Source: an uncultured Gemmatimonadota bacterium (lineage in GTDB: Bacteria; Gemmatimonadota; Gemmatimonadetes; Palauibacterales; Palauibacteraceae). From it: DNA of 64,000 nucleotides. The stretch spans positions 1,674 to 65,673 of the forward strand of contig CAZDZJ010000135.1 of the NCBI GenBank assembly GCA_964509895.1, read 5' to 3'. The position numbers were made by a program, and so were the translations under genes. The notes under the pieces were generated by a model. The model saw only the letters and a list, made by a program, of their open reading frames with translations, was not told where the DNA came from and ran no database searches. Shown piece by piece: positions 17,988 through 42,982 of the stretch (positions are counted from its first letter, which is position 1; every line of letters starts with the position of its first letter).

Positions 17988-19928
17988 ATGAACGTGTTCC
18001 TCGATGCCGGCCGGCGGGTGCTGGGGCTGTGCCTGGTGGTGCTGGTCGCCGTCCCGGTGTTCCTGATCCTCGACCCTGACGGGTCCACGACCCCGCTCGA
18101 CGTCCCCATGCGCCGCGCGGGGTTCGAGTACTGGTCGTATACGTGGGGCGCGGCGACCGGTGTCTGGACCCTCCTCGTCGTCGGAGTCGCAGTCCTGGCC
18201 GGGCTGTTGGGGAAGGGCAGGGTGTCCGGCATCCTGTCCCGGGTCGGCCGAGGCATCGCACGTCCGCCACCGTGGTCCGCGGCCGCGTTCATGGGGCTGC
18301 TCGGCGCCGGGCTCACGGCCGCCATCGCGGTGTGGGTGTTCGAGGGACGCACGCTGTTCAACGACGCGAGCGTACAGCTCGTACAGGCCCGTTATTTCGC
18401 CGGCGGGCAGCTGTCCGGACCGCCCCTCGCGCTGCCCGAGTTCTGGACGATTCAGTTCATGGTGCACACGGCGGCGGGGTGGGTGTCCCAGTATCCCCCG
18501 GCCCACGCGCTGTGGCTTGCGGCCGGCATGAAGCTGGGTGGCCCGTGGATCGCGGCGGCGGCGACCATGGGCATGCTCGGGGTCTTCTCCGTCCTCTCCT
18601 TCGAGCGCCTGTTCCCTGATCGGGCGGCGGCCGCGCGGCTCGGCGCCCTGCTCGCGGTCACGAGCCCCATGCTGCTGGCCCTCGCCGGGGCCTACATGAA
18701 CCACGCGACGGTCGCGGCCTTCGCCGCGCTCGCCCTCTGGCTTGCGCTCCGGGCGGAGACGGGCCGGACCGTGTGGGCGCTGGCGGCGGGCGGCGCGATG
18801 GGTTTCATGGTCGCGGCGCGCCCCGTCTCCGGGCTGCTCATCGGCGCCGCCGTGACGGCGGGCGTGTGGCTCACCGCGCCACGCCGGGAACCGGGCCTGC
18901 ACCGGCCGTGGCTCCTGCGCCGCTTCGCCTGGTGGGCCCTGGGCGGCCTCCCGTTCGCGGTCGGCTTCGCCTGGTACAACGCCCGCTTCTTCGGTGGCCC
19001 GCTCACCCTCGGCTATACGGCCGCCGCCGGCCCGAGCCACGGCCTCGGCTTTCACGTCGACCCGTGGGGTCGCGCATACGGCTTCACACAGGCGCTCGGC
19101 TACACATCGACCGAACTCATCGCGCTCGGACGCGAACTCCTCGGGACCGTGCTCCCGGTCGGTGCCCTGGTCGGCCTCTTTCTGCTCCTGGCTCGACGCC
19201 TGGATCGCGGCGAGCGGGTCCTGACCGCGTGGGCGCTGCTGCCCGTCCTGGCCAGCGCGCTGTACTGGCATCACGACCTCATCGTCGGCCCCCGCATGCT
19301 CGCCGACGCCGTCCCCGCGTGGTGCGCGCTCCTCGTGCTGGGGGTGGTCGGCCTCGCGCGCGTGGCCCGTCGCGGCTGGCTCTCGGACGCGGTCGCCGTT
19401 CTCGTGCTGGTCGCCATCGGCTACGGCCTCGCGGCCGGGGGGCGGGGGCGCGTCGTGCGCCTGACGGGCCGCCTCGCTCCCGTTCCGGAGGTCACGGAGC
19501 CCGGCCCGTCGCTCGTCTTCGTGCACGAGTCGTGGCAGGACCGGATCGGGGCCCGGCTCGCCGCGCGGCCCATGCGGCTCGACAGCGTGCGAGCCCTCAT
19601 CAACCAGTTCTCGCCGTGCCGCCTGGAGGGCGCGCTCGTCGGCGCACAGCGGCCGGAGGAAGTGGAGGCGCGGTGCCGGCGGGAGGCCGCCTCCGATCGG
19701 CTGAGGTGGCTCGGTCTCACCGATTACCTGTGGCGCGGCGACCTGCCCGGCCTCGGCGACTCGGGCGTGCTGTGGGTCCGCGATCTCGGCCCCGAGGCGA
19801 ACGCGCGCGTCATCGAGGCGTATCCCGACCGAACGCCCCTCTTCATCATGCCGGACAGCGGGGGTGGTGGTCAGCCGGTCCAATACGAGGTGGGCGTGAA
19901 CGCCCTGTGGGGCCCCGCTCCGCCCTAG
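17988..19928 (+). CDS. Polytopic membrane glycosyltransferase (GT-C / ArnT-like)
   Basis: About 13 hydrophobic segments; ND..VQLVQARYFAGG, SQYPP, YNARFFGGP, GPRML motifs. Confidence 0.65.
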   Translation: MNVFLDAGRRVLGLCLVVLVAVPVFLILDPDGSTTPLDVPMRRAGFEYWSYTWGAATGVWTLLVVGVAVLAGLLGKGRVSGILSRVGRGIARPPPWSAAAFMGLLGAGLTAAIAVWVFEGRTLFNDASVQLVQARYFAGGQLSGPPLALPEFWTIQFMVHTAAGWVSQYPPAHALWLAAGMKLGGPWIAAAATMGMLGVFSVLSFERLFPDRAAAARLGALLAVTSPMLLALAGAYMNHATVAAFAALALWLALRAETGRTVWALAAGGAMGFMVAARPVSGLLIGAAVTAGVWLTAPRREPGLHRPWLLRRFAWWALGGLPFAVGFAWYNARFFGGPLTLGYTAAAGPSHGLGFHVDPWGRAYGFTQALGYTSTELIALGRELLGTVLPVGALVGLFLLLARRLDRGERVLTAWALLPVLASALYWHHDLIVGPRMLADAVPAWCALLVLGVVGLARVARRGWLSDAVAVLVLVAIGYGLAAGGRGRVVRLTGRLAPVPEVTEPGPSLVFVHESWQDRIGARLAARPMRLDSVRALINQFSPCRLEGALVGAQRPEEVEARCRREAASDRLRWLGLTDYLWRGDLPGLGDSGVLWVRDLGPEANARVIEAYPDRTPLFIMPDSGGGGQPVQYEVGVNALWGPAPP

Positions 19929-20114
19929 CAGGCCGTGGCAAAAGCCCCGCTACGTTCGAGCGGCGCTGCATCTCGCCTGAAACGCTGCGCTCTGCGTCGC
20001 TCCTCGGTCAAATAGCGGTGCTATTCTCCGTCGTCGCTCCTCTCCCCAGAGGGGCCCCCGCCGAGCGCTTCACCGCTCTCGGCGCTGACGCGGGGTTTTG
20101 CCACGGCCTGCTAG
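19925..20114. mobile_element. MITE-like palindromic element, terminal type A (190 bp)
   Basis: Terminal inverted repeats ctagcaggccgtggcaaaa(g)ccccgc / gcggggttttgccacggcctgctag; CTAG at both ends; central hairpin aatagc-ggt-gctatt. Confidence 0.85.
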
Positions 20115-20156
20115 TCTACTGCCACAGAAGTCCTCGGGTGGTCGACCGACCTTGCT

Positions 20157-20573
20157 TCAGGAGCGTGATTCGGGCACCGGAGGTACGACGAGTTCGAGTT
20201 CCGTGTAGCGGGCGATCGTGCCGAAATCGCGGTTTCGGGCCAGCAGCGGGCGTCGCGCACCCACGGCTGCGGCGGCGACCATGCAATCGGTCATGGACCG
20301 AATCGTCCACCCCGCGCGCCGGCAGGTACGATAGATCCGCGCCGCGCTCCGGAAGTGGCCCAGCGAGTCGGGGATCACGATCTCGAAGCGGCCGAGCAGT
20401 TTCAACAGATCCAGCTCCTCGGATTCGCTGCGACAGCCTGCGAGGAGTTCCATGACCGCTGGAGCGGGCGTGGCGATCGCGCCTCCCGCCTGTACGGCGT
20501 CGTCCAGGCAGAGGTCGAAGGGGCTCTCCGTGCGGCGCAGGTATTCGATCCACGCGGATGTGTCGACGATCAC
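20157..20573 (-). CDS. vapC: PIN-domain toxin VapC
   Basis: [31 protein letters not shown]; GTGA overlap with antitoxin. Confidence 0.9.
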
Positions 20574-20986
20574 AGGAGTTCGACCGTGTTGCCGTCCCGC
20601 ATCTCGTCCAGGTCGCCCGCCCAGCCCACACCCCGCATGGCGAGCGCCTCCTCCTTCGTCATTGGGACGAAGGACTGGCGGACCACGGCCTCCGCCACGG
20701 CCGCTGACCAGTTGGCCAGTCCGTACCGCCGGCGCACCGCCTCCAGATCTTCCTCCGGCAACCTCACTTCCAGATCGACGAACCGCAGGAGCCCCTCCTC
20801 GGCCGCTCCGTAACGTGGGCCCGTCTCCCGGACGGCATTGGCGCCTCCACCCCGCAACTCGCGCTCGCGGGCGTCTCGCAGCACGCGCCGCACCCACGCG
20901 GATACCGTGACGCCGTTGCGCCGCGCCGCGTCGCGGATCTCGTCCAACTCCGCCTCCGGCATCACCACCTGCAGTCGCGTGCTCAT
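20570..20986 (-). CDS. vapB: VapB-type antitoxin with additional N-terminal ribbon-helix-helix domain
   Basis: [21 protein letters not shown]; C-terminal [22 protein letters not shown] VapB-like tail; directly upstream of PIN toxin. Confidence 0.75.
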
Positions 20987-20990
20987 AACA

Positions 20991-21007
20991 TGAGTATGAT
21001 ATACTCA
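20991..21007. promoter_or_regulatory. Palindromic operator of vapBC overlapping the -10 box
   Basis: TGAGTAT-gat-ATACTCA perfect 7-bp arms, 4 nt upstream of the antitoxin ATG. Confidence 0.7.
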
Positions 21008-21037
21008 CGCGCGCATCGCAAACGCCGGGGTCGGAGG

Positions 21038-22042
21038 TCAGTCTTCGGAGAAGGCGGCGTCGAAGGCGGTGGCGGAGGGCGGGAAGGTCAGGGCCCGGAG
21101 CCGTTCGCAGGCTTCGCGGGCGCCGTGTTCGCGGTCCATGCCGCTGTCCTCCCATTCGATCGACAGGGGACCGTCGTAGCCGGCGCGGTCGAGGGCGCGC
21201 AGGACCTCCTCGAAGTCCACGCGCCCGCGCCCGATCGAGCGGAAGTCCCAGCCGCGGTCCGCGTGCCCGAAGTCGAGGTGGCCGCCGAACACGCCGGAGC
21301 GGCGCGGCGTGTCCGACCACCACACGTCCTTCATGTGGGCGTGGTGGATGCGGTCGCCGAATTCGAGGATGAACCCGACGTAGTCCACGCCCTGGTAGGC
21401 GAGGTGGCTGGGGTCGTAGTTGAAGCCGAACGCGGCCCGGCCGTCCACCGCTTCGATCGCGCGGGCGGCGCTGCTCGCGTCGAACGCGATCTCCGTGGGG
21501 TGTACCTCGAGGGCGAACTTCACGCCGGCGGCGTCGAAGGCGTCGAGGATCGGATTCCAGCGGTCGGCGAAGTCGGCGAACCCCGCTTCGACGAAGGCGG
21601 GCGGGTGCGGGGGGAAGGCGTAGGCGGCGGCCCAGATCGAGCTGCCGGTGAAGCCGTTCACGACCGGCACGCCGAGCGCACCCGCCGCCGCGGCCGACCG
21701 GCTCATTTCCGCCGCGGCCCGCCGCCGCACGGCCTCGGGGTCGCCGTCGCCCCACACGCGCGCCGGCAGGATGAGCTGGTGGCGGGCGTCGATCGGATCG
21801 CACACGGCCTGGCCGACGAGATGGTTGGCGATCGCGTGCACCTCGAGGCCGTGGGACGCCAGCAGGTCGCGCTGCCCGGCCGCGTAGCCGTCCTCCTCCG
21901 TCGCGCGCACCACGTCGAAGTGGTCGCCCCAGCAGGCGAGCTCGAGCCCGTCGTAGCCCCACGCGGCTGCCTTCGCGGCGAGCGTCGCCAGCGGCATGTC
22001 CGCCCACTGGCCGGTGAACAGCGTGATCGGTCGGGTGCTCAT
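21038..22042 (-). CDS. Sugar phosphate isomerase/epimerase (xylose-isomerase-like TIM barrel)
   Basis: [49 protein letters not shown]. Confidence 0.9.
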
Positions 22043-23226
22043 CGCGTGGCCTCCCCCGGCTCCCCCGGCGGCTCGTAGCTTGCGTCCACCCACGCGCCGC
22101 GCCGCCCGCTCTCGACCGCCCGTTCGAGGAAATGGACCCCCCGCGCCCCGTCCCACACCGTGGGGAAGTCGAGGTCCGCCTTGTCCGGCGTCCGCCCCTC
22201 CTCGAGCGCTGCGATCGTCGAGATCACGTTCCGGTACAGGTTCCCGAACCCTTCGATGAACCCTTCGGGGTGCCCGGGTGGGACCCGCGAGGCACGGGCG
22301 GCCGCGGGCGAAACCCAGCCGTGTCCCCGGCGCCTGGTGCGCGCCCGGCCATCCGGCGTCCGCAGCCAGAGCGTCTCCGCGTCGTCGTGCCGCCAGGCGA
22401 TGGAGCCCTCGCTTCCGAACACGCGGATCGCGAGCCCGTTCTCCTCGCCCGCCGCCACCTGCGACACCGTCAGCGTGCCGCGCACCCCGCCGCTCCAGCG
22501 CATGAGCAGGCTCGCGTCGTCTTCGAGGCGCCGCCCCGGGACGAACGTCGTCAATTCTCCGCACAGCGCCTCCACCTCCAGCCCGGTCACATAGCGGGCC
22601 AGATGGTGCGCGTGCGTCCCGATGTCGCCGAGCGCGCCCGCCACCCCCGCCCGCCCCGGGTCGGTGCGCCACACGGCCTGCGGGTGCCCCGTCTCCTCGA
22701 GCGGCGTCGCCAGCCACCCCTGGAAATACTCGAGCTGAATTCGGCGGATCTCGCCCAGCGTCCCGCCGCGCACCAGGTGGCGCGCGTCCTTGATCATGGG
22801 ATAGCCGCCGTAGTTGTGCGTGAGCGCGAACACGCGATCCCCCGCGGCCACGAGCCGGCACAGCGCCTCCGCGTCCCCGAGATCCGTCGTCAGAGGCTTG
22901 TCGCACACGACGTGGAAGCCCGCATCGAGGAACGTCCGTGCCACATCGAAGTGGAGGTGGTTCGGCGTGACGACGATGACGAAGTCCAGCCGCTCGTCCC
23001 CGTCACGCGCCGCCTCGCGCGCCGCCATCTCCGCGTAACTCCCGTAGACCCGGCCGGCGTCGAGTCCGATCTCCGCCCCCTTCGCCGCCGACCGCTCGGG
23101 GTCCGACGAGAAGGCGCCGGCCGAGATGCGCGCGAGGCCGTCGAGTTCCGCGGCCATGCGGTGCACGTCTCCGATGAAGGCCCCGGGTCCGCCCCCGACC
23201 ATCCCGTAGCTGAAGCGGCGCGTCAT
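22039..23226 (-). CDS. Gfo/Idh/MocA family oxidoreductase
   Basis: [39 protein letters not shown]. Confidence 0.92.
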
Positions 23227-23233
23227 CCGTGCG

Positions 23234-24712
23234 TCATCCGACGTCCGGCTCCGTCCCGATTCGGACGGCCCGGTATCCGCCCGCCCGCCGGTCGCGCATG
23301 CGGATGATGCCGAAGATCAGGATGAGCACGGCCGTGATCGGCACGAGGCGCCGGAAGGAGACCCGGCCCCCGTAGTTGTCCGCCGGCCCGAGGATCGCAT
23401 TCGCCCGCGCCACCAGGGCTTCGTCCCCCCCGGAGTCGATGATCGCCCTGAGCGCATTCGCCGTGACCGACACCGGGAGCCCGCCATCCGGTCCGACGCC
23501 GGCGAGGGCCTCGCCCACCGCTTCACGCGCCGCGGCCAGGTCCGGGGCGGTGCGCTCGTCTGCCCCCGCGAACGCCATCGACGCCTCCGTCAGGAGCGCC
23601 GTCGTCTCGACCACGGGAAGGCGCTCGTGCCCCTCCTCATCGGCGATCCGCCCCATCCAGGGCGTCGTCCACAGCCCGACCACCGCCATCCCGGTGGCCC
23701 CCATCATCCCCAGGCCGAGGGCCCCGGAGCGCGGGACCCGCTCCGACACGAAGCCGAGCATGGTCGGCCAGAAGTAGCACACCCCGACCGCGAACACGGT
23801 GGCCGAGGCGAAGGCCATGACCGTCGTTTCCGCGTAGCTCAGCCACAGCAGTCCCAGGACGGAGACCGCCGCGCTCGCCGACAGCACGCCCGTCGGCGAC
23901 AGGTTCTCGACGGCGAACCCCGCCTTGTAGCGCAGGATCGCCATCAGGCCGTTGATCCACGCGAGCACGAGGATCCCGGGAATCCCGCCCGCCTCCAGCA
24001 CCGCCGGCACCCAGCGGTTCGGCCCCAGTTCCGTCGACGCCGTGATCGCCATGCAGAACAGCATCAGGATCATCAGAGGCGTCATGAAGGTGGCCCTGAA
24101 CATCTCCCCCATGCCGACCCCCGCCCGCACGCCCTCCGTGGGCGGGAACTCCTCGCGCCACATCAGGTGTCCGTAGATGAGGGTCGGGATCAGGATGAGG
24201 CCGATCTTCAACTGCCACGCGGTGAGCCCCGCCGCGTCGAGCCCGAATGCGAGCACGGAGCCGATGACGATCCCGCCCGGGAACCAGACGTGGAACTGGT
24301 TCAGCTTGACCGTCTTCCGGTCCGGATAGAGCGCCGCCACGAGCGGGTTGCAGGCCGCCTCGACGAGCCCGTTCCCCAGCGCCAGCGTCAGCGCCCCGAT
24401 GAACGCCTGCCACAGGCCGCCGGCCGTGACGAGGACCAGCGCCCCCACCAGGTGACACCCGAACGCGAGCCGCAGCAGGAAACGCATGCCGAGCGTGTCG
24501 CAGAACGGCGCGAAGACGACCTGCGACACGGCGAAGCCCCAGATCGCCGCGCCGCCGATGAGGCCCACCTCGTAGTTGGTGAGCGTGAACTCGCTCTTCA
24601 GCGTGAGCATGACCGCGCCGACCACCGCGAAGGTGACGGAGGTCGCGATCAGCGACACGCAACTGCCCAGGAAGAGCCGCCCCGGGCGGACGGCCGACGA
24701 GGTCGTGTTCAC
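23234..24712 (-). CDS. MFS transporter (probable sugar/glycoside)
   Basis: 12-TM profile; GNGLVEAACNPLV, LNQFHVWFPGGIVIG, YFWPTMLG. Confidence 0.88.
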   Translation of the reverse strand: MNTTSSAVRPGRLFLGSCVSLIATSVTFAVVGAVMLTLKSEFTLTNYEVGLIGGAAIWGFAVSQVVFAPFCDTLGMRFLLRLAFGCHLVGALVLVTAGGLWQAFIGALTLALGNGLVEAACNPLVAALYPDRKTVKLNQFHVWFPGGIVIGSVLAFGLDAAGLTAWQLKIGLILIPTLIYGHLMWREEFPPTEGVRAGVGMGEMFRATFMTPLMILMLFCMAITASTELGPNRWVPAVLEAGGIPGILVLAWINGLMAILRYKAGFAVENLSPTGVLSASAAVSVLGLLWLSYAETTVMAFASATVFAVGVCYFWPTMLGFVSERVPRSGALGLGMMGATGMAVVGLWTTPWMGRIADEEGHERLPVVETTALLTEASMAFAGADERTAPDLAAAREAVGEALAGVGPDGGLPVSVTANALRAIIDSGGDEALVARANAILGPADNYGGRVSFRRLVPITAVLILIFGIIRMRDRRAGGYRAVRIGTEPDVG

Positions 24713-27345: not shown

Positions 27346-28872
27346 ATGCGCGCCCCCGATCGAACGTTCGTCACGCACCTGTGCTGTGCGCTTTCCCTCT
27401 CCCTGATCGGCCTCTCGGCCTGTGCGCCGGAGGACGCCGGCGAGGCCGGCGGGGACGAAGGCTCCGGCGAGACGCTCGCCGAGCGCCTGATCGCGCGCGG
27501 GGAAACGCTCGAGCTTCCGACGGAGTGGGATCCGCCGCCGGGCGAGCCGATCGTGCACCACACGGCGGGCTTCGCGAAGACGCTCTGCTCCGGGACGTTC
27601 ATCACGGGTCTGGACTGGCGCGACGCGGCGGCGAACGTGGGCGGCTTCACGGCGCCCTTCCAGCACCGTGGCGCGGTCGTCGACACGGTGGTCGACATGG
27701 AGGCACAGACGGTGAGCCTCACCCTCGGCTCGGGGATCACGCGCACGGCGAAGCTGTACGGCAGCCAGGGCTGCATCACGCACCCGCTGGGCCGGGACTC
27801 GATCTACTTCACGCCCTCCGTGGTCGAGCCGATGACCCCGGATCCCGCGACCACGCCGTGGCCCATGGGGGACGTCCTCCCGGACGAGCCGTTCCCGCCC
27901 GAGATCGACATGGAGAAGGTCGGGCAGGCGGTCGAGATCGCGATGGACCAGGAGGGGAAGACGCTCGGCTTCGTCGTCACATACAAGGGGCGGATCATCG
28001 GCGAGGACTACGGTCCGGGCGTCGACATGCACACGCCGTTCGAGAGCTGGTCGAAGGGGAAATCGCTCACCGGGACGCTGATGGCCGTCCTCATCCAGCA
28101 GGGCGTGTACGGCCTGTGGCAGCGCGCCCCGATCCCCGAATGGCAGGATGACGCAAGGAAGAACATCCGCATCGCCGACATCATGCGCATGTCGAGCGGG
28201 ATCCGGATCGTGGCGCCGCAGGACCCCGGCTATACGGAGGAGATGGGGTATCCCGACCACCTCTATCTCTACACGGGCGAGAACGCCTTCGAGTGGGCGG
28301 CCACCCGCCCGCAGCAGTGGGAGCCGAACACCGTGGGGCGGTACCGGAACACCGACCCGGCGCTCACGAACTACCTGGTCCGCCTCGGCGTGGAGGGACG
28401 CGGCGAGGACTATCACGCCTTCCCGCAGCGGAACCTGTTCGACAAGCTCGGGATCCGGAACTTCATCATGGAGACGGACCCGAACGGGAATTTCCTCACG
28501 CAGGGCTACGAGTTCGGCTCCGCGCGCGACTGGGCGCGGCTCGGCAACCTCTACCTGCAGGACGGGGTGTGGGAGGGCGAGCGCATCCTCCCGGAGGGCT
28601 ACGTCGACTACGCGATGGAAATCGCGCCGGCCTGGATCGCGGACGGACGGCCGACGTACGGCGGCGGCTTCGTGTGGAAGGACCTCGGCTTCCCGATCGA
28701 GGACGACTACGGCGCCTTCGCCGGGGCAGGTGGACAGTACACGGTCTTCGTCCCCGCGCGCGGCCTCGTCATCACGCGCCTCGGCAAGTACACGGGCCAG
28801 GGCCCCGGCGGGGACAACCTGGACGCCGCCATCGCCCTGCTCATGGAGGCCGTGCCCCCGATCAGCGACTAG
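27346..28872 (+). CDS. Serine hydrolase, beta-lactamase (class C-like) family lipoprotein
   Basis: Lipobox LSAC; SKGK (SxxK), YRN, ARDWARLG, GAGGQY. Confidence 0.85.
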   Translation: MRAPDRTFVTHLCCALSLSLIGLSACAPEDAGEAGGDEGSGETLAERLIARGETLELPTEWDPPPGEPIVHHTAGFAKTLCSGTFITGLDWRDAAANVGGFTAPFQHRGAVVDTVVDMEAQTVSLTLGSGITRTAKLYGSQGCITHPLGRDSIYFTPSVVEPMTPDPATTPWPMGDVLPDEPFPPEIDMEKVGQAVEIAMDQEGKTLGFVVTYKGRIIGEDYGPGVDMHTPFESWSKGKSLTGTLMAVLIQQGVYGLWQRAPIPEWQDDARKNIRIADIMRMSSGIRIVAPQDPGYTEEMGYPDHLYLYTGENAFEWAATRPQQWEPNTVGRYRNTDPALTNYLVRLGVEGRGEDYHAFPQRNLFDKLGIRNFIMETDPNGNFLTQGYEFGSARDWARLGNLYLQDGVWEGERILPEGYVDYAMEIAPAWIADGRPTYGGGFVWKDLGFPIEDDYGAFAGAGGQYTVFVPARGLVITRLGKYTGQGPGGDNLDAAIALLMEAVPPISD

Positions 28873-29035
28873 TGTAGTGTCGCAGAAATCCTCGAGGCAC
28901 CGAGAGTGCCGGGGCGCCGGCCTCCGCAAGGCGCTCCGACGAGCAATAGCCGTACTATTGCGAGGAGGAGCAACGCCGCGGGGACGGATGCAGCGGCGCT
29001 CGAATGACCGCAGGATTTCTGCGACACTACACTAG
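28869..29035. mobile_element. MITE-like palindromic element, terminal type B (167 bp)
   Basis: Perfect 24-bp TIR ctagtgtagtgtcgcagaaatcct / aggatttctgcgacactacactag; central hairpin gcaatag-ccgta-ctattgc; lies between convergent genes. Confidence 0.9.
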
Positions 29036-29920
29036 GCCGGTCGGGCCGCGCTCCGCGGCCAGGCGCCGGGCGCGAGGACCGAGGTCGGGGGCGTCGAGGA
29101 TGGTGGCGACGAGTTCGAAGTCGTCGCGGGGGCCCGTCCATTCGAGGTCATCGACGCTCGCTGACACCGGGGCGTCGCGGACGAGTGTGGCGAGGTGGCG
29201 GAAGAGGAGCGCGTCTTCCAATCCGCCACGCAGTGTCCGGGCGAGGCGTTCGGGGCCCCGGACCGAGACATCCCAGTCTCGCCCGTCCGAGGGGATGTCA
29301 TCGATGCGGCCATAGCGGGCCAGCACCGCAGCGGCGGTCTTCGCGCCGAAGCCGCGGATGCCGGGGAAACCATCCGCGGAATCTCCGACCAGGGCCAGCC
29401 AGTCGGGGATCGCGGCGGGTGCGACGCCGAACTTCTCGATGACGCCGGTCTCGTCGCGCAGCAGGCGCTGCCGCCGGTCGAACTGCACGATGCGGTCGCC
29501 CTCCACGCACTGGGCGAGATCCTTGTCGGGCGTGCAGAGGAAGACGCGCTCCACGCGCGGGTCCGCGGCGGCCATCCGGGCGCCGGAGGCCATCCCGTCG
29601 TCCGCTTCGTGCTCCACCATCGGCCACACGACGAACCCCGCCGAGGCGAGGGCCTCCTCGACAAGCGGGAACTGCGAGTAGAGCGCCGGATCGATCCCGC
29701 TGCCGTCCTTGTAGCCGGGCCACAGGTCGTTGCGGAACGACTCGATGACGCGGTCCGTGGCGATCGCGACGTGGGTGGCGCCGCCCTCGAGGAGCCCGAG
29801 CATCGAACCCACCACGCCGCGCGCCGCCCCCACCTCGTGGCCGCCCGCGTTCTTCGCCGAGGGCGCTCCGTAGAAGTGCCGGAACAATTCGTAGGTGCCA
29901 TCGATGAGGTGGACCTGCAC
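29027..29920 (-). CDS. Stand-alone 5'-3' exonuclease / flap endonuclease
   Basis: HLIDGTYELFR, SFRNDLWPGYK, EADD, DKDLAQ, LVGDSADGFPGIRGFGAKTA (H3TH). Confidence 0.9.
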   Translation of the reverse strand: MQVHLIDGTYELFRHFYGAPSAKNAGGHEVGAARGVVGSMLGLLEGGATHVAIATDRVIESFRNDLWPGYKDGSGIDPALYSQFPLVEEALASAGFVVWPMVEHEADDGMASGARMAAADPRVERVFLCTPDKDLAQCVEGDRIVQFDRRQRLLRDETGVIEKFGVAPAAIPDWLALVGDSADGFPGIRGFGAKTAAAVLARYGRIDDIPSDGRDWDVSVRGPERLARTLRGGLEDALLFRHLATLVRDAPVSASVDDLEWTGPRDDFELVATILDAPDLGPRARRLAAERGPTGLV

Positions 29921-31298: not shown

Positions 31299-32580
31299 GA
31301 CGCTGCGGGAGCGGGCGGCCGGGGTACGGAAGGCGCAGCGCACGATCGGAAGCGTGCCGGCGGCGCGCCGGACGGCGGCGTTGCGCGCCCTGAGAGCCGT
31401 GCTGGTCCGCTCGCGCGGCGAGATCTCGCGGGCGAATGACGAAGACCTCGAGCGGGCCGCGGAGGAAGGGCTTTCCGGGGCGCTCCTCCACCGACTGGGG
31501 CTGCCCGACGCCAAGTTCGAGAGCCTGCTCGACGGGATCGACGCGCTCGTCGAAGGCGAAGATCCGATCGACCGTGTCCTGACGCGGACGGAACTCGATG
31601 AGGGTCTCGTCCTCGAGCGTGTGAGCAGCCCGCTCGGCGTGCTCCTCATCATCTTCGAGAGCCGTCCCGACGCGGTCATCCAGATCGGGTCGCTCGCCAT
31701 CCGCTCGGGGAACGGCGTGATCATGAAGGGGGGGCGCGAGGCGGCGCGTTCGAACGAGGTGCTCGTCGGCTGCCTGCAGCGGGCGCTGGAGGAGGCGGGA
31801 CTCGATCGTCGGGCGGTCCTCGGCGTCCCGGACCGGCGCGATGTCGACGAATTGCTCGCCCTGGACGACCTCATCGACCTCGTCATCCCCCGGGGCTCCG
31901 GGGCGCTGGTGCGTTCGATCCAGGAGCGGAGCCGGATTCCGGTGCTGGGTCACGCGGAGGGGGTATGTCACCTCTTCGTGGACGCCTCGGCCGATCCGGA
32001 GATGGCGATGCGGATGGCGGTGGATGGGAAGTGCGACTACCCGGCCGCCTGCAACGCGACCGAGACGCTGCTCGTGCACGCAGCGTTTCTGCCGCGGTTG
32101 GGGCCGGTCGGAGAAGCCCTGCGCGAACAGGGCGTGGAACTCCGCTGCGACCCGCCGGCTCGCGGTGCCCTGCCGTGGGCCGAAGCCGCCTCGAACGAAG
32201 ACTGGGGAGTCGAGTTCGGGGAACTGACGCTCGCCGTGCGGACCGTCGGGAGCCTGGAGGAGGCCGTCGATCACATCCACACCTACGGGAGCAGCCACAC
32301 CGACGCGATCGTGGCCGAAGACCGGGAGGTGGCGGAGCGGTTTCTGACGGCGGTCGACGCGGCGAGCGTGTTCCACAACGCGAGCACCCGCTTCGCGGAC
32401 GGCTTCCGATACGGGCTCGGGGCCGAGGTCGGAATCAGCACGGCGCGCATCCACGCGCGCGGGCCGGTCGGTGTCGAGGGCCTCCTGACGACGCGCTGGC
32501 TGCTGCGCGGCGAGGGGCAGGGCGCCGCGGACTACGGCCCCGGCAAGCGAAGCTTCACGCACCGCCCGATGGACGGCTAG
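31291..32580 (+). CDS. proA: Glutamate-5-semialdehyde dehydrogenase
   Basis: IFESRP, IPRG, ACNATETLL, HNASTRFADG..GAEVGIST..HARGPVG. Confidence 0.95.
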   Translation: MTETLRERAAGVRKAQRTIGSVPAARRTAALRALRAVLVRSRGEISRANDEDLERAAEEGLSGALLHRLGLPDAKFESLLDGIDALVEGEDPIDRVLTRTELDEGLVLERVSSPLGVLLIIFESRPDAVIQIGSLAIRSGNGVIMKGGREAARSNEVLVGCLQRALEEAGLDRRAVLGVPDRRDVDELLALDDLIDLVIPRGSGALVRSIQERSRIPVLGHAEGVCHLFVDASADPEMAMRMAVDGKCDYPAACNATETLLVHAAFLPRLGPVGEALREQGVELRCDPPARGALPWAEAASNEDWGVEFGELTLAVRTVGSLEEAVDHIHTYGSSHTDAIVAEDREVAERFLTAVDAASVFHNASTRFADGFRYGLGAEVGISTARIHARGPVGVEGLLTTRWLLRGEGQGAADYGPGKRSFTHRPMDG

Positions 32581-32743
32581 TGTCGTGTCCCGGAAATACC
32601 ACGGCTATTCGAGCGCCGATGCATCCGGCTCCGTGGCGTTGCTCCTCCTCGAAATGGCGCTGCCATTCCTCGTCGGAGCGCCTTGCGGAAGCCGGCGCCT
32701 CGGCACTCTCGGTAGCTCGCGTATTTCCGGGACACGACACTAG
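32577..32743. mobile_element. MITE-like palindromic element, terminal type B (167 bp), opposite orientation to the 28869 copy
   Basis: 23-bp TIR ctagtgtcgtgtcccggaaatac / gtatttccgggacacgacactag; ungapped alignment to reverse complement of 28869-29035. Confidence 0.9.
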
Positions 32744-37629: not shown

Positions 37630-37802
37630 GGAATCGCTCGAATCGGGGGGAGAAACGGACCGTTGCGCTTGTCACGAAGCCGACGGAGACCCCATTTAGC
37701 GGGCCGGTCGCGGGCCGCACGGCGTGACAGTAGACGACGCCCGGCGGCGCAGGCAAGAACCCCTCGCGACCGGCACGACGAAGCGACGAAGCACGGAGAT
37801 TC

Positions 37803-38111
37803 ATGACCGACGATACGCTGACCTCGATCCTCATCATCGCGGGCTCGGTGGCCGCGCTGCTCGCCCTTGCGTTCGGCATCTGGATCGGGCTCGGGTCTCC
37901 GGGACTCTACGACCGGTCTGAGCCGACCGGCAGGGCGCCGCGCGAATCGCCCTGGCGCTGGCTGCTGGGAGGGCGGCAGCGCGCCCGGTCGAGCCGCTTC
38001 GATGCCGTGATGCGCGATGCCGAAACGGAGGAGGGCGAGGCCGAAGGGGGACGGTTCGAGCCGCACGCGTCGAAGCCGGATTTCAGCCGGGGACGTCGCT
38101 TCCGGCGATGA
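37803..38111 (+). CDS. Small hypothetical membrane protein
   Basis: GGAG SD before ATG; single N-terminal TM segment. Confidence 0.55.
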   Translation: MTDDTLTSILIIAGSVAALLALAFGIWIGLGSPGLYDRSEPTGRAPRESPWRWLLGGRQRARSSRFDAVMRDAETEEGEAEGGRFEPHASKPDFSRGRRFRR

Positions 38112-38151
38112 ATCGCGCGCGGCGGATACGCAGGCGGCGAATACGCCGGCG

Positions 38152-39027
38152 GTGAGTACGCCGGCGGATCGTCACGAGCGGGTGCGGCGCATCCTCCTGT
38201 GGGTGCTGCTCGCGAACGTGGCGGTGATCGCGGCGAAGGTGGTCGTGGGGCTGCGTTCGGGGTCGATCGCGGTGCTGGGCGACGCGGCCCACTCGGGCGT
38301 CGACGCGATCAACAACGTCGTGGGCCTTGCCGCGATGCGCCTCGCGTCCGCCCCGCCGGACGCCGAGCATCCCTACGGTCACGGCAAGTTCGAGACGCTC
38401 GCGGTGCTCGCCGTGGCGGCCTTCCTCTCGGTCACGTGCTTCGAACTCGTCCAGGGCGCCATCGAGCGTCTCATCCAGGGCGGTGCTCCCCCGAACCTCG
38501 AGCCGCCGATGCTGATCCTGCTCGCGGCGGCCCTGATCGTGAACACGGTCGTCGCGCTGAGCGAGGCCCGCGCGAGCCGCAGGCTGTCGAGCGAGATCCT
38601 CGCGGCGGACGCGCGGCACACGGCGGCCGATGTGCTCGTGACGGCGGGAGTTCTGGTCGGACTCGCGATCACGACATGGACCGGCTGGGCTCCCGCCGAC
38701 GCGTGGCTGGCCCTCGCCGTGGCCTTCGTCGTGGCGCGCTCGGGATACCAGATCTTCCGGGAAACCATCCCGGTACTCGTCGATGAGCGGGCGGTCGATC
38801 CGGTGGAAATCGAGGATGTCGCGAGGGAGGTTGCCGGCGTGCGCGCCGTGACCCGGGTCCGTTCACGCGGCAAGTCCGTGGGGCGTTTCGCCGAACTCAT
38901 CATCCAGGTCGCGCCCGGCGAGACGGTGGTCAGCGCCCACGAAATCGCCGATGAAGTGGAACGGCGCATCGCGGACCGGATGGGCTTCACGGATGTGACG
39001 GTCCACGTGGAGCCCGAAGGCTACTGA
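38152..39027 (+). CDS. Cation diffusion facilitator family transporter
   Basis: DAAHSGVD, HPYGHGKFE, DARHTAAD, AHEIADEVE, VHVEP; start approximate. Confidence 0.9.
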   Translation: MSTPADRHERVRRILLWVLLANVAVIAAKVVVGLRSGSIAVLGDAAHSGVDAINNVVGLAAMRLASAPPDAEHPYGHGKFETLAVLAVAAFLSVTCFELVQGAIERLIQGGAPPNLEPPMLILLAAALIVNTVVALSEARASRRLSSEILAADARHTAADVLVTAGVLVGLAITTWTGWAPADAWLALAVAFVVARSGYQIFRETIPVLVDERAVDPVEIEDVAREVAGVRAVTRVRSRGKSVGRFAELIIQVAPGETVVSAHEIADEVERRIADRMGFTDVTVHVEPEGY

Positions 39028-39031
39028 CGGC

Positions 39032-39736
39032 TCAGTCGTCCGCCGCGTCGTCCGTTTCGTCGTCCGGGCCGGAGTCCGGGTCGGGCTCGACGGCGAACGC
39101 CCAGGCGCAGCGGTCGTCCGTACCGGCTTCACAGTGGGTATGCACGGCGTGCCCGTCTCCCACCCGATATGCCTCGAAGAGGGCATCGATGATCCCGGTC
39201 AGAAGCGCGCAGCCGGCTCCCCCCTTTTCGGCGGTCGCAAGCGCCGGCAGTCCGCGCTCGATGACGAGCGTCCCCTTGCTTACCCGGATGCCGGAGGCGG
39301 GGCAGAGCAGGCGCGCGATCTGTCGAGCCTTTCTCCAGGCGCGCAGTCGCCGCCATGCCAGCGGCATGAGCCGCCACCCGCCGCGCATGACCACCACGCC
39401 CCGCGCGCCCAGCTCCTCGCGGGCGATCCGGTGTCCCGTGACACCGAAGATCTCCGGAGAATCCACGCGCTTCGCGACGAGGTCGAACAGGCTCCCGACC
39501 TCTGTCGCGCTTACGTCGCCGCCCTCCGCCTGGTAGCGGTGAATCTGCTTGAGAACGACGCTGGAGAGCCCGAGCCTCCGGCGCAGATTGAGGGAGAGGT
39601 CCCCGCCCTCGAGTTCGCTCGGATCCTCGGGCGTGTCGAGGTCTTTGAGGGTCAGCAGGAGGGCCAGCGGGATGCGAACGGGAATGTCGCCCTCGAACTC
39701 CCCGTCTTGTGTATGCGGAGAATCAACCGGCATCAT
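39032..39736 (-). CDS. Hypothetical protein with C-terminal V4R-like motif
   Basis: GCALLTG...HTHCEAGTDDRCAWAF Cys pattern. Confidence 0.55.
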   Translation of the reverse strand: MMPVDSPHTQDGEFEGDIPVRIPLALLLTLKDLDTPEDPSELEGGDLSLNLRRRLGLSSVVLKQIHRYQAEGGDVSATEVGSLFDLVAKRVDSPEIFGVTGHRIAREELGARGVVVMRGGWRLMPLAWRRLRAWRKARQIARLLCPASGIRVSKGTLVIERGLPALATAEKGGAGCALLTGIIDALFEAYRVGDGHAVHTHCEAGTDDRCAWAFAVEPDPDSGPDDETDDAADD

Positions 39737-39812
39737 GGTGCGCAAGGCTACGGCGGCACTTCCGGGCCTGCAAGCGGTGCCGGACGCCGGAGCCCACCGC
39801 ATGGGAGGCGCC

Positions 39813-40220
39813 ATGAATGCACCCGTCTCGAAGGAAACCACCCACGCCGTCCTCCGGGTTACCGCCGGCCTCATGCTATGGCAGCACGGCGCCCAGAAGC
39901 TGTTCGGCATGTTCGGGGCCACCGCAGTCGAATCCTGGTTCGCGTGGCCCCGGGGGATCGCCGGCATCATCGAGTTCTTCCTGCCGATCCTCATCATCCT
40001 CGGGATACGGACGCGCTGGGTCGCCTTCATCCTCACGGGGCACTTCGCGGTGGTCTACTGGTGGCGCCACTTCTTCGCCCGCGAGATGGAGTTCTGGCCG
40101 ATCGTGAACGGTGGGGAGCTCGCCATCCTGTATTGCGCGATTTTCCTCTTCCTGTGGACGACGGGCAACGGGAAGTTCAGCCTGGACCACATGGTCCCGG
40201 GTCCCGGCAGCGACGACTAG
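39813..40220 (+). CDS. DoxX family membrane protein
   Basis: HGAQKLFG, AGIIE, GIRTR, NGGELAILY, GKFSLD; GGAGG SD. Confidence 0.9.
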   Translation: MNAPVSKETTHAVLRVTAGLMLWQHGAQKLFGMFGATAVESWFAWPRGIAGIIEFFLPILIILGIRTRWVAFILTGHFAVVYWWRHFFAREMEFWPIVNGGELAILYCAIFLFLWTTGNGKFSLDHMVPGPGSDD

Positions 40221-40307
40221 CTGCACGACGCTGGCGCAAGTTGTTCGGCCGCCGGTCCGGCCCCATCTTGTGCGGCCGGCCGGCGGCCTCCCGCAGGGTG
40301 CCGCCGC

Positions 40308-40412
40308 GTAGCAGTCCGTGGAAAAACCCCGCGTCAGCGACGTTGGCGTAGCGATTCAGGCGAGGTGCATTCGCCGCTCGAACCAAGCGGGGCTTTTGCC
40401 ACGGGCTGCTGG
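40308..40412. mobile_element. Internally deleted, degenerate copy of the type A element (105 bp)
   Basis: gtagcagtccgtggaaaaaccccgcgtcagcg...cgctcgaaccaagcggggcttttgccacgggctgctgg matches both ends of the reverse complement of 19925-20114. Confidence 0.8.
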
Positions 40413-40458
40413 TACATCTTCCCGGAGTGACCCCGTAGACGGAGCGGACCCTCGAGCC

Positions 40459-42969
40459 ATGTACGACCCCGGAGCCGTCGAGTCCCGATGGCAGGCCTGG
40501 TGGGAGGAGAACCGGACGAACGAGCCCGACCTCGACGCCTCGAGGCGTCCGTTCTTCAACCTGATGATGTACCCCTACCCGTCCGCCGAGGGACTCCACG
40601 TGGGGAACCTCTACGCCTTCACCGGGGCCGACATCTACGGCCGGTTCCGCCGCCTGCGGGGCGACGACGTGTTCGAGCCCATCGGATACGACGCGTTCGG
40701 CATCCACTCGGAGAACCACGCGCTCAAGGTCGACACGCACCCGATGGAACTCATCCCCTCGAACATCCGCAACTTCGAGCGGATGCTGCGGGCGTCGGGG
40801 CTCATGGCGGACTGGTCGCGCACGGTCGATACGACGGATCCGGGTTACTACAAGTGGACGCAGTGGATCTTCGTCCAGCTGTTCAAGGCGGGACTCGCGG
40901 AGAAAAAGGAAGCCGCGGTCAACTGGTGCCCGAAGGACCAGACCGTCCTCGCCAACGAACAGGTGATCGCCGGGCTGTGCGAGCGCTGCGATACCGCGGT
41001 CGAACAGCGGATGCTGAGCCAGTGGTTCTTCCGGATCACGGACTACGCGCAGCGCCTGCTCGACAACCTGGACTGGATCGACTGGTCCGAGACCACGAAG
41101 ACGGCGCAGCGAAACTGGATCGGCCGCTCGGACGGCGCGCGGCTGCACTTTCCGCTTTCGAGCGCCGCCGCCCCCGGGGACTCCGCCGCCTCGGGGGATG
41201 TCGCGGGCTCCGGGGATGTGGACCAGATCGAGGTGTTCACGACCCGTCCCGATACGCTCTTCGGGGCGACCTTCATGGTGCTGGCGCCGGAGCACCCGCT
41301 CGTCGAGCGCCTGACGACGGACGAACGGCGCGCCGACGTGGAAGCCTACGTGCGCGAGGCGGCGACCGTCGATCTCGTGGAGCGGCAGAAGACGGAGGAG
41401 CGCGAGAAGACCGGCGCCTTCACCGGCGGCTACGCGCGGAACCCGGCCACGGGCGGCGACATCCCCGTGTGGGTCGCCGACTACGTCCTCATGGACTACG
41501 GCACCGGGGCGATCATGGCCGTGCCCGGACACGACCAGCGGGACTTCGATTTCGCGCGTCAGTTCGGGTTGCCCGTCGTACGGGTCGTGTGCTCCCGCGC
41601 GGCGCTCCCGGAGGGCGAGGATCCGTCGGCCGTGGAAGGAGACGAGGCGGAGGCTGCCTTCGTCGAGCACACCGCGGACGAAATCCTCATCAACTCGGGC
41701 CGCTTCAGCGGGATGGAAGCGGACGCGGGCGGCCGCGCCATCACCGAGGCGCTGGCGGAGAACGGCCTGGGGGCGGCCGAAGTGAACTATCGGTTGCACG
41801 ACTGGTGCATCTCGCGGCAGCGGTACTGGGGACCGCCGATCCCGATCATCTACTGCGACTCGTGCGGGCCGCAGGCGGTGCCGGAGGAGGATCTGCCCGT
41901 CGTTCTCCCCTACGTGGAGGATTTCCGTCCCACGGCGACGGGGGTGAGCCCGCTCGCGCGCGACCCGGAGTTCCATGCGGCGGCGTGTCCGGCCTGCGGG
42001 GGCGATGCCCGGCGCGAGACCGACGTCTCCGACACCTTCCTCGATTCGGGCTGGTACTTCCTGCGCTATCCCTCGACCGAGTTCGACGACCGCCCGTTCG
42101 ACGCGGAGAGGACGAGGAAGTGGCTGCCCGTGAGCAGCTACATCGGCGGCGAGGAACACTCCGTCCTTCACCTGCTCTACTCCCGCTTCCTCACCATGGT
42201 GCTGCACGACCTCGGGCACCTCGACTTCGAGGAACCGTACGACCAGTTCCGGAAGCACGGGCTGCTGATCAAGGAAGGCGCGAAGATCTCGAAGTCCCGC
42301 GGCAACGTGATCCTGCCGGACAGGTACATCGCACGGTTCGGCGCGGACACGTTTCGCACGTACCTCATGTTCCTCGGTCCCTTCCAGCGGGGGGGAGACT
42401 TCCGCGACAGCGGGCTCGCCGGGCCGGAGCGGTTCCTGAAGAAGGTTTGGGACAGCGTGCTGGGGGCCGTCGAGTCCGGGCGCACGGGTTTGGACGACCC
42501 CGGCGTGGAGCGCGCACTGCACGGAACGATCAAGCAGATCTCGGAGGACCTCGAGGCGCTGAGTTACAACACGGCGATCGCCGCGGCGATGGACTACCTC
42601 AACACCGTGCGCTACGGCGGGAGAACCGCCTCGGTGGACGAGGTGCGCCCGCTCGTCATCATGATCGCCCCGATCGCGCCGCACATCGCCGAAGAGTTGT
42701 GGTTCCGGCTCGGAGGCGAGTCGAGCATCTTCGACCACGCCGAGTGGCCGGCCTGGGACAAGAGCAAGCTCGTGGTCGACGAGGTGGAGCTTCCGGTGCA
42801 GGTGAACGGCAGGCTGCGGGCGACGATTCGGGTCGCGCGCGGAGCGCCGGAAGACGTCGTGCGCGAGGCGGCGCTGGCCGAGGCGAACGTGAGCCGGCGT
42901 CTCGATGGAGCCGCGATCCGCAAGGTGATCCACATCCCGGATCGCATGCTCAACCTGGTCGTCTCCTAG
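40459..42969 (+). CDS. leuS: Leucine--tRNA ligase
   Basis: MYPYPSAEGLHVGN, FTTRPDT, GTGAIMAVPGHDQRD, DWCISRQRYWG, KISKS, VQVNG. Confidence 0.96.
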   Translation: MYDPGAVESRWQAWWEENRTNEPDLDASRRPFFNLMMYPYPSAEGLHVGNLYAFTGADIYGRFRRLRGDDVFEPIGYDAFGIHSENHALKVDTHPMELIPSNIRNFERMLRASGLMADWSRTVDTTDPGYYKWTQWIFVQLFKAGLAEKKEAAVNWCPKDQTVLANEQVIAGLCERCDTAVEQRMLSQWFFRITDYAQRLLDNLDWIDWSETTKTAQRNWIGRSDGARLHFPLSSAAAPGDSAASGDVAGSGDVDQIEVFTTRPDTLFGATFMVLAPEHPLVERLTTDERRADVEAYVREAATVDLVERQKTEEREKTGAFTGGYARNPATGGDIPVWVADYVLMDYGTGAIMAVPGHDQRDFDFARQFGLPVVRVVCSRAALPEGEDPSAVEGDEAEAAFVEHTADEILINSGRFSGMEADAGGRAITEALAENGLGAAEVNYRLHDWCISRQRYWGPPIPIIYCDSCGPQAVPEEDLPVVLPYVEDFRPTATGVSPLARDPEFHAAACPACGGDARRETDVSDTFLDSGWYFLRYPSTEFDDRPFDAERTRKWLPVSSYIGGEEHSVLHLLYSRFLTMVLHDLGHLDFEEPYDQFRKHGLLIKEGAKISKSRGNVILPDRYIARFGADTFRTYLMFLGPFQRGGDFRDSGLAGPERFLKKVWDSVLGAVESGRTGLDDPGVERALHGTIKQISEDLEALSYNTAIAAAMDYLNTVRYGGRTASVDEVRPLVIMIAPIAPHIAEELWFRLGGESSIFDHAEWPAWDKSKLVVDEVELPVQVNGRLRATIRVARGAPEDVVREAALAEANVSRRLDGAAIRKVIHIPDRMLNLVVS

Positions 42970-42982
42970 TGTAGTGTCGCAG
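42966..42982. repeat. Solo terminal remnant of the type B element
   Basis: ctagtgtagtgtcgcag, identical to the first 17 nt of the 28869 TIR and containing the leuS stop. Confidence 0.75.

Follow-up and report, generated by a model that had tools for sequence, protein, structure and literature searches.

A probable cross-phylum family of small CTAG-inserting MITE-like elements with one folded core and two types of insertion-sequence arms

How can the same interior come to lie between two different kinds of transposon ends? This question is raised by a stretch of 64,000 nucleotides from an uncultured Gemmatimonadota bacterium (contig CAZDZJ010000135.1), the whole of which was analysed and is referred to here as the window. 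The initial annotation had reported five related non-coding pieces with two end types, A and B, and all five are present (Table 1). The full-length elements are dispersed, about 165-190 nt long and non-coding, and they consist of complementary arms of ~30 nt on either side of a core of ~105 nt. We propose, with a probability of roughly 0.7, that they are members of a family of small MITE-like transposons, non-autonomous and present in more than one phylum, which insert at CTAG and in which an independent folded core is combined with exchanged IS630 or IS1182/IS5-like arms.

Table 1. Positions of the elements and of the stop codons overlapping them in the window
Feature	Position	Strand	Description
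A1	19925..20114	-	Full-length type A, 190 nt; core on the minus strand; covariance model score 116.8 bits
TAG stop of + ORF 27346..28872	28870..28872	+	Within the left flanking CTAG of B1
B1	28869..29035	+	Full-length type B, 167 nt, CTAG on each side; covariance model score 150 bits
B1 core	28900..29004	+	CCGAGAG to CGCTCGAA; P2, P3, apical hairpin P4 and invariant loops
TAG stop of ORF 29032..29901	29032..29034	-	Within the right flanking CTAG of B1
B2	32577..32743	-	Full-length type B, second subfamily, 167 nt; covariance model score 152.1 bits
A2	40308..40412	+	Type A with internal deletion, 105 nt; covariance model score 36.5 bits
Solo type B terminus	42966..42982	+	17 nt

The arms of A1 are 23 nt long and 96% complementary, and A1 carries an insert of 13 nt relative to the 176-177-nt type A copies found elsewhere in the same genome. 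The arms of B1 (24 nt) and B2 (23 nt) are perfectly complementary; they differ from each other by compensating changes on both sides, and B2 is 83% identical to the reverse complement of B1 over 167 nt. The core of B1 is the portion common to type A and to copies from other phyla. A2 has both ends in common with A1, with its terminal CTAGs degenerated to GTAG and CTGG. The CTAG of the solo terminus supplies the TAG stop codon of the long plus-strand ORF 40318..42969, and at the empty B1 site a single CTAG is common to the two convergent ORFs listed in Table 1. Beyond the window, its genome contains 22 full-length copies, six of type A and 16 of type B, besides truncated ones. CTAG is very scarce in this genome, and ~16% of its occurrences lie at the ends of the family's elements. 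A search with a core-only HMM gave 34 hits; the full and near-full ones coincide with copies typed as A or B, and on these hits a third end type in this genome was rejected. Copies cluster beside IS elements and form arrays. Four copies of ~70 nt have retained only the arms. Since these four share one common deletion, movement may not require the core.

Evidence for mobility comes from empty sites. B1 is absent at all 12 resolved loci of relatives (13 were fetched), and a single CTAG or CTAA occupies the site in 9 of the 13. A clean single CTAG was found at the A1 site in one (in genome G043) of the four loci in which both flanks could be located. In another sponge metagenome (run X2), a contig joins position 32576 to position 32740, skipping 163 nt with an ambiguity of 4 nt, and this contig is an empty allele of B2. 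CTAG flanks the elements on both sides, and a single CTAG is present at empty sites; duplication of TA or of CTAG would give the same sequence. One source gives duplication of TA upon insertion for IS630-family elements and cites, in its reference list, a preference for CTAG (PMC2170065), and another gives a 4-nt duplication of CTAG/YTAA for an IS5-type MITE (PMC3189936). Type A and type B elements alike have genuinely inserted at CTAG, and their sites vary among genomes, as expected for the mobile family that had been proposed.

The two element types share their interior. After 30 nt had been trimmed from each end, the interiors of types A and B aligned locally with a score of 57, which corresponds to a z of about 13 relative to 2000 shuffles that preserve dinucleotides (18.7 +/- 2.9, maximum 36). 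The score fell to 18 against the reverse complement. The interiors are homologous, which agrees with the common core described in the initial annotation. Past the CTAG, 12 of 27 and 13 of 26 arm positions are identical, where shuffled sequences give about 9.4 +/- 1.6 (p 0.12 and 0.03), and calling the ends unrelated beyond CTAG was essentially fair. The core could be regarded as the leftover of an internal deletion in a parent IS. This explanation was ruled out, since a covariance model search of 17 IS loci with the filters off detected no core inside an IS interior and found only abutting small elements. The core is an independent module that derives from the interior of neither IS.

No transposase is encoded in the window, as noted before, and no match to PF13358 or PF01609 was obtained in the whole assembly, which is 93% complete. 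The sole trace of an IS1182-like transposase in this assembly is a 65-aa remnant on another contig. Full-length insertion sequences with matching ends were found in other genomes. For type A, the ends of a 1,473-bp IS match the arm of the local small elements at 19 of 20 positions. This IS is present in genome G052 in 11 copies with 97-100% protein identity and encodes a 456-aa protein with the domains DUF772 and DDE_Tnp_1 (64.5 and 25.3, both above the Pfam cut-offs). Its best NCBIfam match is IS1182, although the score of 159.7 bits against NF033551 (IS1182) lies below the curated cut-off of 270, as does the score of 83.7 bits against NF033581 (cut-off 140). One end of a relative of this IS in genome G048, 56% identical, matches the A arm of the window at 18 of 20 positions. 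Judged by these similarities, the type A partner transposase falls in the IS4/IS5/IS1182 group, and the type A arms correspond to the ends of an insertion sequence of IS1182/IS5-like kind.

The type B arms correspond to terminal repeats of the IS630 family. IS630-type (PF13358) elements end in CTAGTG. One such end in G052 agrees with the B2 arm over 22 of 28 positions, with a 12-nt block among them, and an IS630-type end in G048, which belongs to the same genus, matches the type B arm at 12 of 13 positions. The best type B end match lies in a genome of another phylum; no PF13358 gene was detected in three complete genomes of congeners that carry the element. Unusual B-like arms occur in five more MAGs, and a search of these for resident IS630-type elements whose ends match was negative: three lack a DDE_3 gene, one has two genes without CTAGTG ends, and one has CTAGTGT ends with no further match. 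Taken with the type A matches, these similarities support the earlier suggestion that transposon ends of different kinds carry one and the same folded cargo.

We propose that transposases acting in trans use the arms as handles. Type B elements, with IS630-family repeats, would insert at TA, preferably within CTAG, and duplicate the TA. Type A elements would use IS1182/IS5-like repeats, and relatives of that IS duplicate the 4-nt CTAG. As both routes would leave CTAG on each side, CTAG alone would be shared by the two end types. The fold of one strand of the core would be preserved while the arms are exchanged. IS630-type and IS1182/IS5-like transposases probably are the enzymes that move the elements.

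The family extends well beyond this locus. It was found in at least 115 stretches from Gemmatimonadota and Acidobacteriota MAGs and in one Spirochaetia MAG. Among 151 genomes sampled from each of two phyla, the core is present in 22 from the window's phylum and in 31 from the second. About 111 scored copies reside in G052, further arm variants occur outside the window's genome, and exact pattern searches of viral contigs gave no matches. The core is predicted to form a rod in which four helices surround invariant loops; for B1, the predicted rod has a free energy of -107.3 kcal/mol (z -11.6). A conserved folded interior had been postulated, and the covariance model built here reveals covariation across all four helices. 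Compensatory changes occur in 32 of the 49 pairs, 94.0% of the cells are paired (77.2% after shuffling and 28-43% when the alignment is slid), and the covariation score of 0.489 (0.176 shuffled, at most 0.10 slid) was reached by none of 500 shuffles.

These data bear on the simplest alternative, in which no core is selected at all and a young family has spread by horizontal transfer with undiverged interiors and arms replaced by chance. Many copies within a genome are indeed nearly identical (at least 18 in G334 have the same score, and 62 private substitutions were counted over 100 copies in G052), and the distribution is patchy. However, the sequences of P3 and P4 differ entirely between lineages and are nevertheless paired, while the loops separating these helices do not vary among the 33 non-redundant copies, a pattern that requires many substitutions together with selection. 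Contradicted already by the compensatory changes, this alternative is highly improbable.

The family does not appear to have been catalogued. Rfam gave no match across the window at gathering thresholds, and at five element loci, with E-values up to 1, only long-hairpin miRNA models were obtained (32.9 bits versus 268), on both strands; no description was found in the literature. Two other identities were considered and rejected. A peptide starting at a conserved ATG, assessed by reading only, is contradicted by variable bases that covary with their helix partners and by a frame and stop codon that are not conserved. The CCGA/GAA loop, inspected by eye only, does not fit a K-turn or sarcin-ricin motif.

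The asymmetry of its strands bears on whether the core works as RNA or as DNA. The core helices contain 93 G.U and 14 A.C cells, or 14 versus 3 by position (p 0.013), counted in related copies on a structure predicted on that same strand. The plus strand is the more stable one in 30 of 33 copies. Since the non-canonical pairs are G·U and not A·C, one strand seems to be constrained, and we regard the G.U excess as suggestive rather than decisive. The wobbles in the outer arms mirror a left/right difference that already exists in the IS ends. In the Logan contigs of one RNA run, a 58-nt contig lies on positions 32692-32742 with a depth of 85.6 and carries no strand information; B1 is uncovered in the contigs of that run, which is not evidence that a transcript is absent. 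We put the chances that the core acts as a folded transcript slightly below even.

If it is transcribed, the core might serve the host, for example as a cis-regulatory RNA in 3′ untranslated regions that stabilises the mRNA or acts as a processing site or terminator. For REP, ERIC and Correia repeats, roles of this kind have been suggested. The predicted structure has a very high stability, and the copies lie at the 3′ ends of genes: 75 neighbouring genes read into an element and 38 read away, and in ~39 cases the flanking CTAG contains the TAG stop codon of the neighbour. Nevertheless, the CTAG target is by itself enough to explain this position next to stop codons, and scans for promoters (sigma-70-type consensus only) and canonical terminators found no sites. 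No orientation bias relative to genes was detected with crude gene calls (ORFs no shorter than 80 aa and GC-rich at the third codon position), read-through being sense in 31 and antisense in 44 cases and tandem pairs being divided 7 to 11. Resident copies are also not visibly protected, because the 100 G052 copies, which were located with the covariance model, a choice that still favours conserved copies, have 0.26 private substitutions per family-invariant core column and 0.38 per variable column (p 0.32). A role in serving the host is quite unlikely. We infer instead that the core is selected for aiding the element's own proliferation.

The core could also do so as DNA, either as a hairpin, cruciform or protein-binding site that would draw the ends of the short element together for the transposase, or as a site for a tyrosine recombinase. 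An island points in this direction. It carries a P4-type integrase with Arm-DNA-binding, central and catalytic domains and is inserted in the apical hairpin of an element. The two junctions have a core of 11 nt in common, and the insertion rebuilds the stem-loop sequence at one of them. By our reading of the alignment, two similar direct repeats flank this hairpin, which is the attachment site of the integrase-bearing island. The elements are oriented at random both relative to genes and along one complete chromosome (49 plus and 62 minus, p 0.87), as expected if no transcript matters; the promoter scan was empty, and either transposase family would have the same need for such a site. A duplex or cruciform, however, predicts equal numbers of G.T and A.C cells, which is at odds with the counts given above and with the greater stability of the plus strand, and simple hairpin extrusion leaves the invariant unpaired loops unexplained. 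The asymmetry would be consistent with a fold adopted by a single strand of defined polarity, as in attC sites, but no enzyme using such a fold was found. Function as DNA is possible, if somewhat unlikely.

MITEs are usually defined by their ends, and their interior is treated as junk, whereas in this family the interior is the conserved part. Its fold and invariant loops have been kept over at least two phyla while the ends swap between two superfamilies that share only the target. A core conserved under swapped ends argues that a selected activity is carried by the cargo itself. We tentatively suggest that the core is the unit of selection, a selfish and horizontally spreading folded RNA (or ssDNA) which repeatedly exchanges its handles to ride whichever CTAG-targeting transposase, IS1182/IS5-like or IS630/Tc1-like, the host offers, and whose hairpin has since become a landing pad for integrase-borne islands. 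If this suggestion holds, genome plasticity would centre on the core hairpin in several phyla of marine and sponge-associated bacteria. The family provides a concrete and testable case of cross-mobilisation and end exchange. It shapes genomes through the occupancy of CTAG, stop codons shared by convergent genes, arrays and an integration site for islands, and it is missed by annotation pipelines because Rfam holds no model for it.

Several known repeats resemble the elements in part. The closest analogue of type B is RUP, the repeat unit of pneumococcus, an IS630-related MITE of one genus which is defined by its ends. It is likewise short and non-coding, has IS630-like terminal repeats, inserts at TA and is presumed to be mobilised in trans, but it lacks a core common to elements bearing the ends of another IS family. 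The Correia elements of Neisseria and the ERIC/IRU repeats of enterobacteria are imperfect palindromes of ~100-170 nt, present in many copies at TA-type targets and without a transposase of their own. Their interiors are also conserved beyond expectation, and they give long hairpin transcripts. In contrast to the present family, they have one end type each and are spread within related genera, and their proposed functions depend on a transcription context for which no bias is seen here. We know of no exchange of ends between transposase superfamilies in either of them. The tRNA and tmRNA genes are attachment sites of P4-type integrases, which there too recombine within a sequence encoding a stem-loop that is rebuilt at one junction; those targets are single-copy RNA genes, whereas the present island has inserted into a mobile element that exists in many copies. 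The attC sites of integrons are imperfect palindromes in which the fold of one strand is conserved and not the sequence, and they suggest by analogy how folding of one particular DNA strand could be important in the core. Unlike attC sites, the elements end in CTAG and IS-type repeats, and they occupy conserved chromosomal surroundings, for which relatives have empty sites, and not cassette arrays. REP and BIME sequences are ~35-nt palindromes with a conserved tetranucleotide head and a link to RAYT transposases. Identity with them was rejected, as the element size, the long arms matching the ends of DDE-type IS and the duplicated target do not fit. The nearest analogue of the target behaviour of type A is MITEPsy1 of Pseudomonas syringae, a 100-nt element with IS5-like ends that inserts at CTAG/YTAA and duplicates these 4 nt (PMC3189936). 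The repeats of MITEPsy1 suggest an origin from a resident IS (PMC3189936), whereas the interior of the present elements does not come from the matching IS and is conserved across phyla.

All five related pieces described in the initial annotation were found in the window where they had been placed. The arms of A1, B1 and B2, which are the complementary ends of these elements, are 23-24 nt long and 96-100% complementary. The search of the window's genome (3.40 Mb, 143 contigs, 69% G+C, 93% complete) with a covariance model of the element gave 34 matches, 22 of them full length, which were typed as 6 A and 16 B copies. Type B comprises two subfamilies whose arm differences are matched on both sides. 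The tetranucleotide CTAG occurs in this genome at 589 sites, where base composition predicts about 9,700, an approximately 16-fold under-representation, and an A or B terminus is located at 92 of 588 CTAG sites. Some type B copies contain an 18-nt duplication that forms a second apical hairpin and extends the element from 167 to 185 nt. Four type A copies, about 70 nt long, consist of arms only and have one deletion in common, between 8-nt direct repeats flanking the core; either they form a subfamily that moved without a core, or the deletion has occurred repeatedly.

Locations of the elements and associated features. Positions without a prefix refer to the window; G000 is the window's genome, and G, L and C denote genomes, loci and contigs.
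Feature	Location	Remarks
A1	19925-20114	CTAG at both termini
B1	28869-29035	CTAG at both termini
B2	32577-32743	CTAG at both termini; reverse complement of B1, 83% identity
A2	40308-40412	type A copy, most of interior gone, degenerate ends
Remnant	42966-42982	solo type B terminus
Type B copies with 18-nt duplication	G000:C59:68-252; G000:C53:49074-49258; L020 (G016:C4:961049-961231)	
Arm-only type A copies	G000:C57:71405-71473; C63:2889-2958; C118:33083-33152; C21:8347-8417	
Head-to-tail arrays	L023:4652-4992; L026:6991-7348; G114:C1:4079349-4079874; G114:C1:3738486-3739347	
Integrative unit	G000:C21:20605-22471 (L201:2106-3972); G000:C137:9152-10606; C43:74864-75116	
Left junctions of integrative unit	C110:3034-3124; C102:12908-12998; C125:1768-1858	
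Small element and IS with common CTAG	L058:6349-7840; L189:1271-2940; L184:354-449; L186:2264-2450	

As judged from orthologous sequences, the A and B elements are insertions. Empty sites with a single CTAG, which the initial annotation had proposed to look for, were found at the B1 site in congeners and at the A1 site. The B1 locus was compared in 13 congeners, 12 of which were resolved. The flanks are directly joined by one CTAG (seven loci) or CTAA (two loci) in nine of the 13, one locus contains a 23-nt duplication, two contain other inserts of 776 and 1,020 nt, and for one a flank was missing from the search result; the B1 element is present in none of the 12 resolved loci. The 1,020-nt insert (L141 in genome G010) and the 776-nt insert (L148 in genome G042) occupy the same CTAG as B1, which suggests that this site is a recurrent insertion hot spot. 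In the window, the TAG stop codons of the convergent ORFs 27346..28872 (+) and 29032..29901 (-) are supplied by the CTAGs flanking B1 at 28869-28872 and 29032-29035. The two stops overlap in one CTAG in the relatives, and the B1 insertion preserves both. For A1, the two flanks could be located in four of 13 loci, one with a clean CTAG and three with a short remnant resembling a type A end. In a contig from another sponge metagenome, position 32576 is followed directly by 32740; the 163 nt in between are absent, with an ambiguity of 4 nt, which corresponds to a B2-less allele. Loose ends cluster exactly at the six element boundaries. The runs in which 20% or more of the words sampled from the stretch occur are sponge metagenomes from three studies.

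The proposal that types A and B share a core held against shuffled controls. The local alignment of their consensus interiors (6 A and 15 B copies, 30 nt trimmed from each end) scored 57, versus 18.7 ± 2.9 for dinucleotide-preserving shuffles (n=2000, maximum 36) and 18 for the reverse complement. The arms match at 12/27 and 13/26 positions versus about 9.4 ± 1.6 when shuffled (p 0.12 and 0.03). The A and B arms are thus at most faintly alike, in essential agreement with the earlier view that the ends are unrelated beyond CTAG.

The fold of the element was predicted with RNAalifold from 33 copies less than 88% identical, aligned with MAFFT. Three of them come from the window and one from the unpublished genome G200, which was also used for one negative check. 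The prediction is an unbranched rod consisting of the arms (P1), a short helix, P2, P3 and the apical hairpin P4. The loops between the helices are invariant in all 33 copies (e.g. CCGAGAG, GGCGCC, CAAGGCG, GAGCAACGC and GGATGCA..CGCTCGAA), and in 32 of the 49 pairs the pairing is kept through two-sided changes. Paired cells amount to 94.0%, versus 77.2% with shuffled columns and 28-43% with the partners slid. The covariation score of 0.489, versus 0.176 for shuffled alignments (reached in 0 of 500) and at most 0.10 for slid ones, supports a covarying fold. B1 folded alone gives -107.3 kcal/mol (z -11.6). The comparison with Rfam suggested in the initial annotation returned nothing comparable to the element.

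The core helices contain 93 G.U versus 14 A.C non-canonical cells, or 62 versus 14 without one invariant G.U; counted by position, G.U prevails at 14 versus 3 with 4 ties (p 0.013). Taken alone, the arms have no significant bias, and their wobbles reproduce a difference between left and right that the IS ends already have. Of the two core strands, the + strand, on which the fold was predicted, is the stabler one in 30 of 33 copies, with a mean advantage of 7.3 kcal/mol. Among 106 copies, genes reading into the element do so 31 times in sense and 44 times in antisense. Along the chromosome of G052, a Vicinamibacterales genome, 49 elements lie on the + and 62 on the - strand, without a switch (p 0.87). 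Since orientation is random, a mutational strand bias cannot account for the asymmetry, which points to one strand being under selection. In 100 G052 copies, private substitutions per column are 0.26 in the family-invariant core, 0.38 in the variable core and 0.48 in the arms; the invariant core differs with p 0.32 from the variable columns and p 0.08 from the arms, a comparison of low power in which retrieval by the model favours conserved copies. Resident copies are thus not visibly protected. From these results we infer that conservation is imposed on proliferating lineages, the core aiding the spread of the element and not the host at each site. The core may do this in transcribed form or as folded DNA. 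The scan of the element found neither a sigma-70-type promoter nor a canonical terminator.

The core is far wider in distribution than the window suggests. Its exact pattern matched at least 115 stretches; the MAGs among the matches listed belong to Longimicrobiales, Candidatus Palauibacter, other Gemmatimonadota, Vicinamibacterales, Thermoanaerobaculia and Bryobacterales, and include one Spirochaetia MAG with a partial copy. No viral contig matched the exact pattern. In the window's phylum, 22 of the 151 genomes sampled were positive with the model, as were 11 of 82 genera, with an uneven distribution over families; in the phylum of G052, 31 of 151 genomes were positive, including the unpublished G252. 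None of the conclusions depends on the unpublished G200 or G252. The arms are far more variable than the core, with several types besides the A-like and B-like ones, and are always complementary. At least 18 copies with an identical model score (157.2 bits) lie on many contigs of genome G334, suggesting a very recent burst. The element also forms head-to-tail arrays that repeat about every 171-178 nt; their units overlap by a common CTAG in genome G114 and have degenerate junctions in L023 and L026. In many Vicinamibacterales copies (G052: L024, L040, L058, L059, L105, L122), the stretch that separates the apical hairpin from the GAGGAGCAACGC block is longer by one or two units of roughly 17-18 nt, so that the element reaches about 184 or 201 nt. 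The listings and abstracts retrieved on MITEs (sponge symbionts; IS1182/IS630; Acidobacteria, Gemmatimonadetes) do not describe the family, and an Acidobacteria paper among them names MITEs only in its reference list. None of the titles and abstracts retrieved for Palauibacter concerns repeats.

In the window's genome, three right and three left halves of type A elements could be taken for truncations. This reading was rejected, as they mark the two junctions at which a unit has integrated. The unit of at least 1.45 kb lies within the apical hairpin of type A elements, and two copies are 94% identical. It starts with a 407-aa tyrosine integrase with arm-binding, central and catalytic domains (Arm-DNA-bind_3, Phage_int_M, Phage_integrase). 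Both junction types have 11 nt of the apical hairpin in common, and the same junction is present in L131 from another Longimicrobiales genome.

The absence of a transposase noted for the window extends to its whole assembly, which has no match to PF13358 or PF01609; the IS1182-like transposase is left there only as a 65-aa remnant. PF13358 is also absent from three complete congeners carrying elements. IS copies with matching terminal repeats, sought as initially proposed, were found for both end types in G052 and in G048, a congener. IS630-type genes number 6 in G048 and 27 in G052, and their IS copies of 1,155-1,230 bp all end in CTAGTG. The B2 arm matches one such G052 end at 22/28 positions, 12 of them consecutive, and a G048 end matches the type B arm at 12/13. 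None of five other MAGs with unusual B-like arms was found to contain an IS630-type element whose ends match them. A 1,473-bp IS, present in 11 copies in G052 (protein identity 97-100%), has ends matching those of the local small element at 19/20 positions. Its 456-aa protein contains DUF772 and DDE_Tnp_1 domains and is nearest to IS1182 and IS5 models, with scores under the NCBIfam cut-offs. In G048, a 56%-identical relative is present in three copies, and one of its ends agrees with the A arm of the window at 18/20. The covariance model found no trace of the core inside the IS elements. Small elements often abut IS copies with the CTAG in common; since the target is restored on either side with every insertion, elements accumulate side by side. 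In the literature, IS630-family elements target TA, which is duplicated on insertion (PMC2170065), with a preference for TA within CTAG described in a paper cited therein, and an IS5-type MITE duplicates the 4-nt CTAG/YTAA (PMC3189936). Two unrelated enzymes with the same target would explain why the A and B ends are alike only in CTAG.
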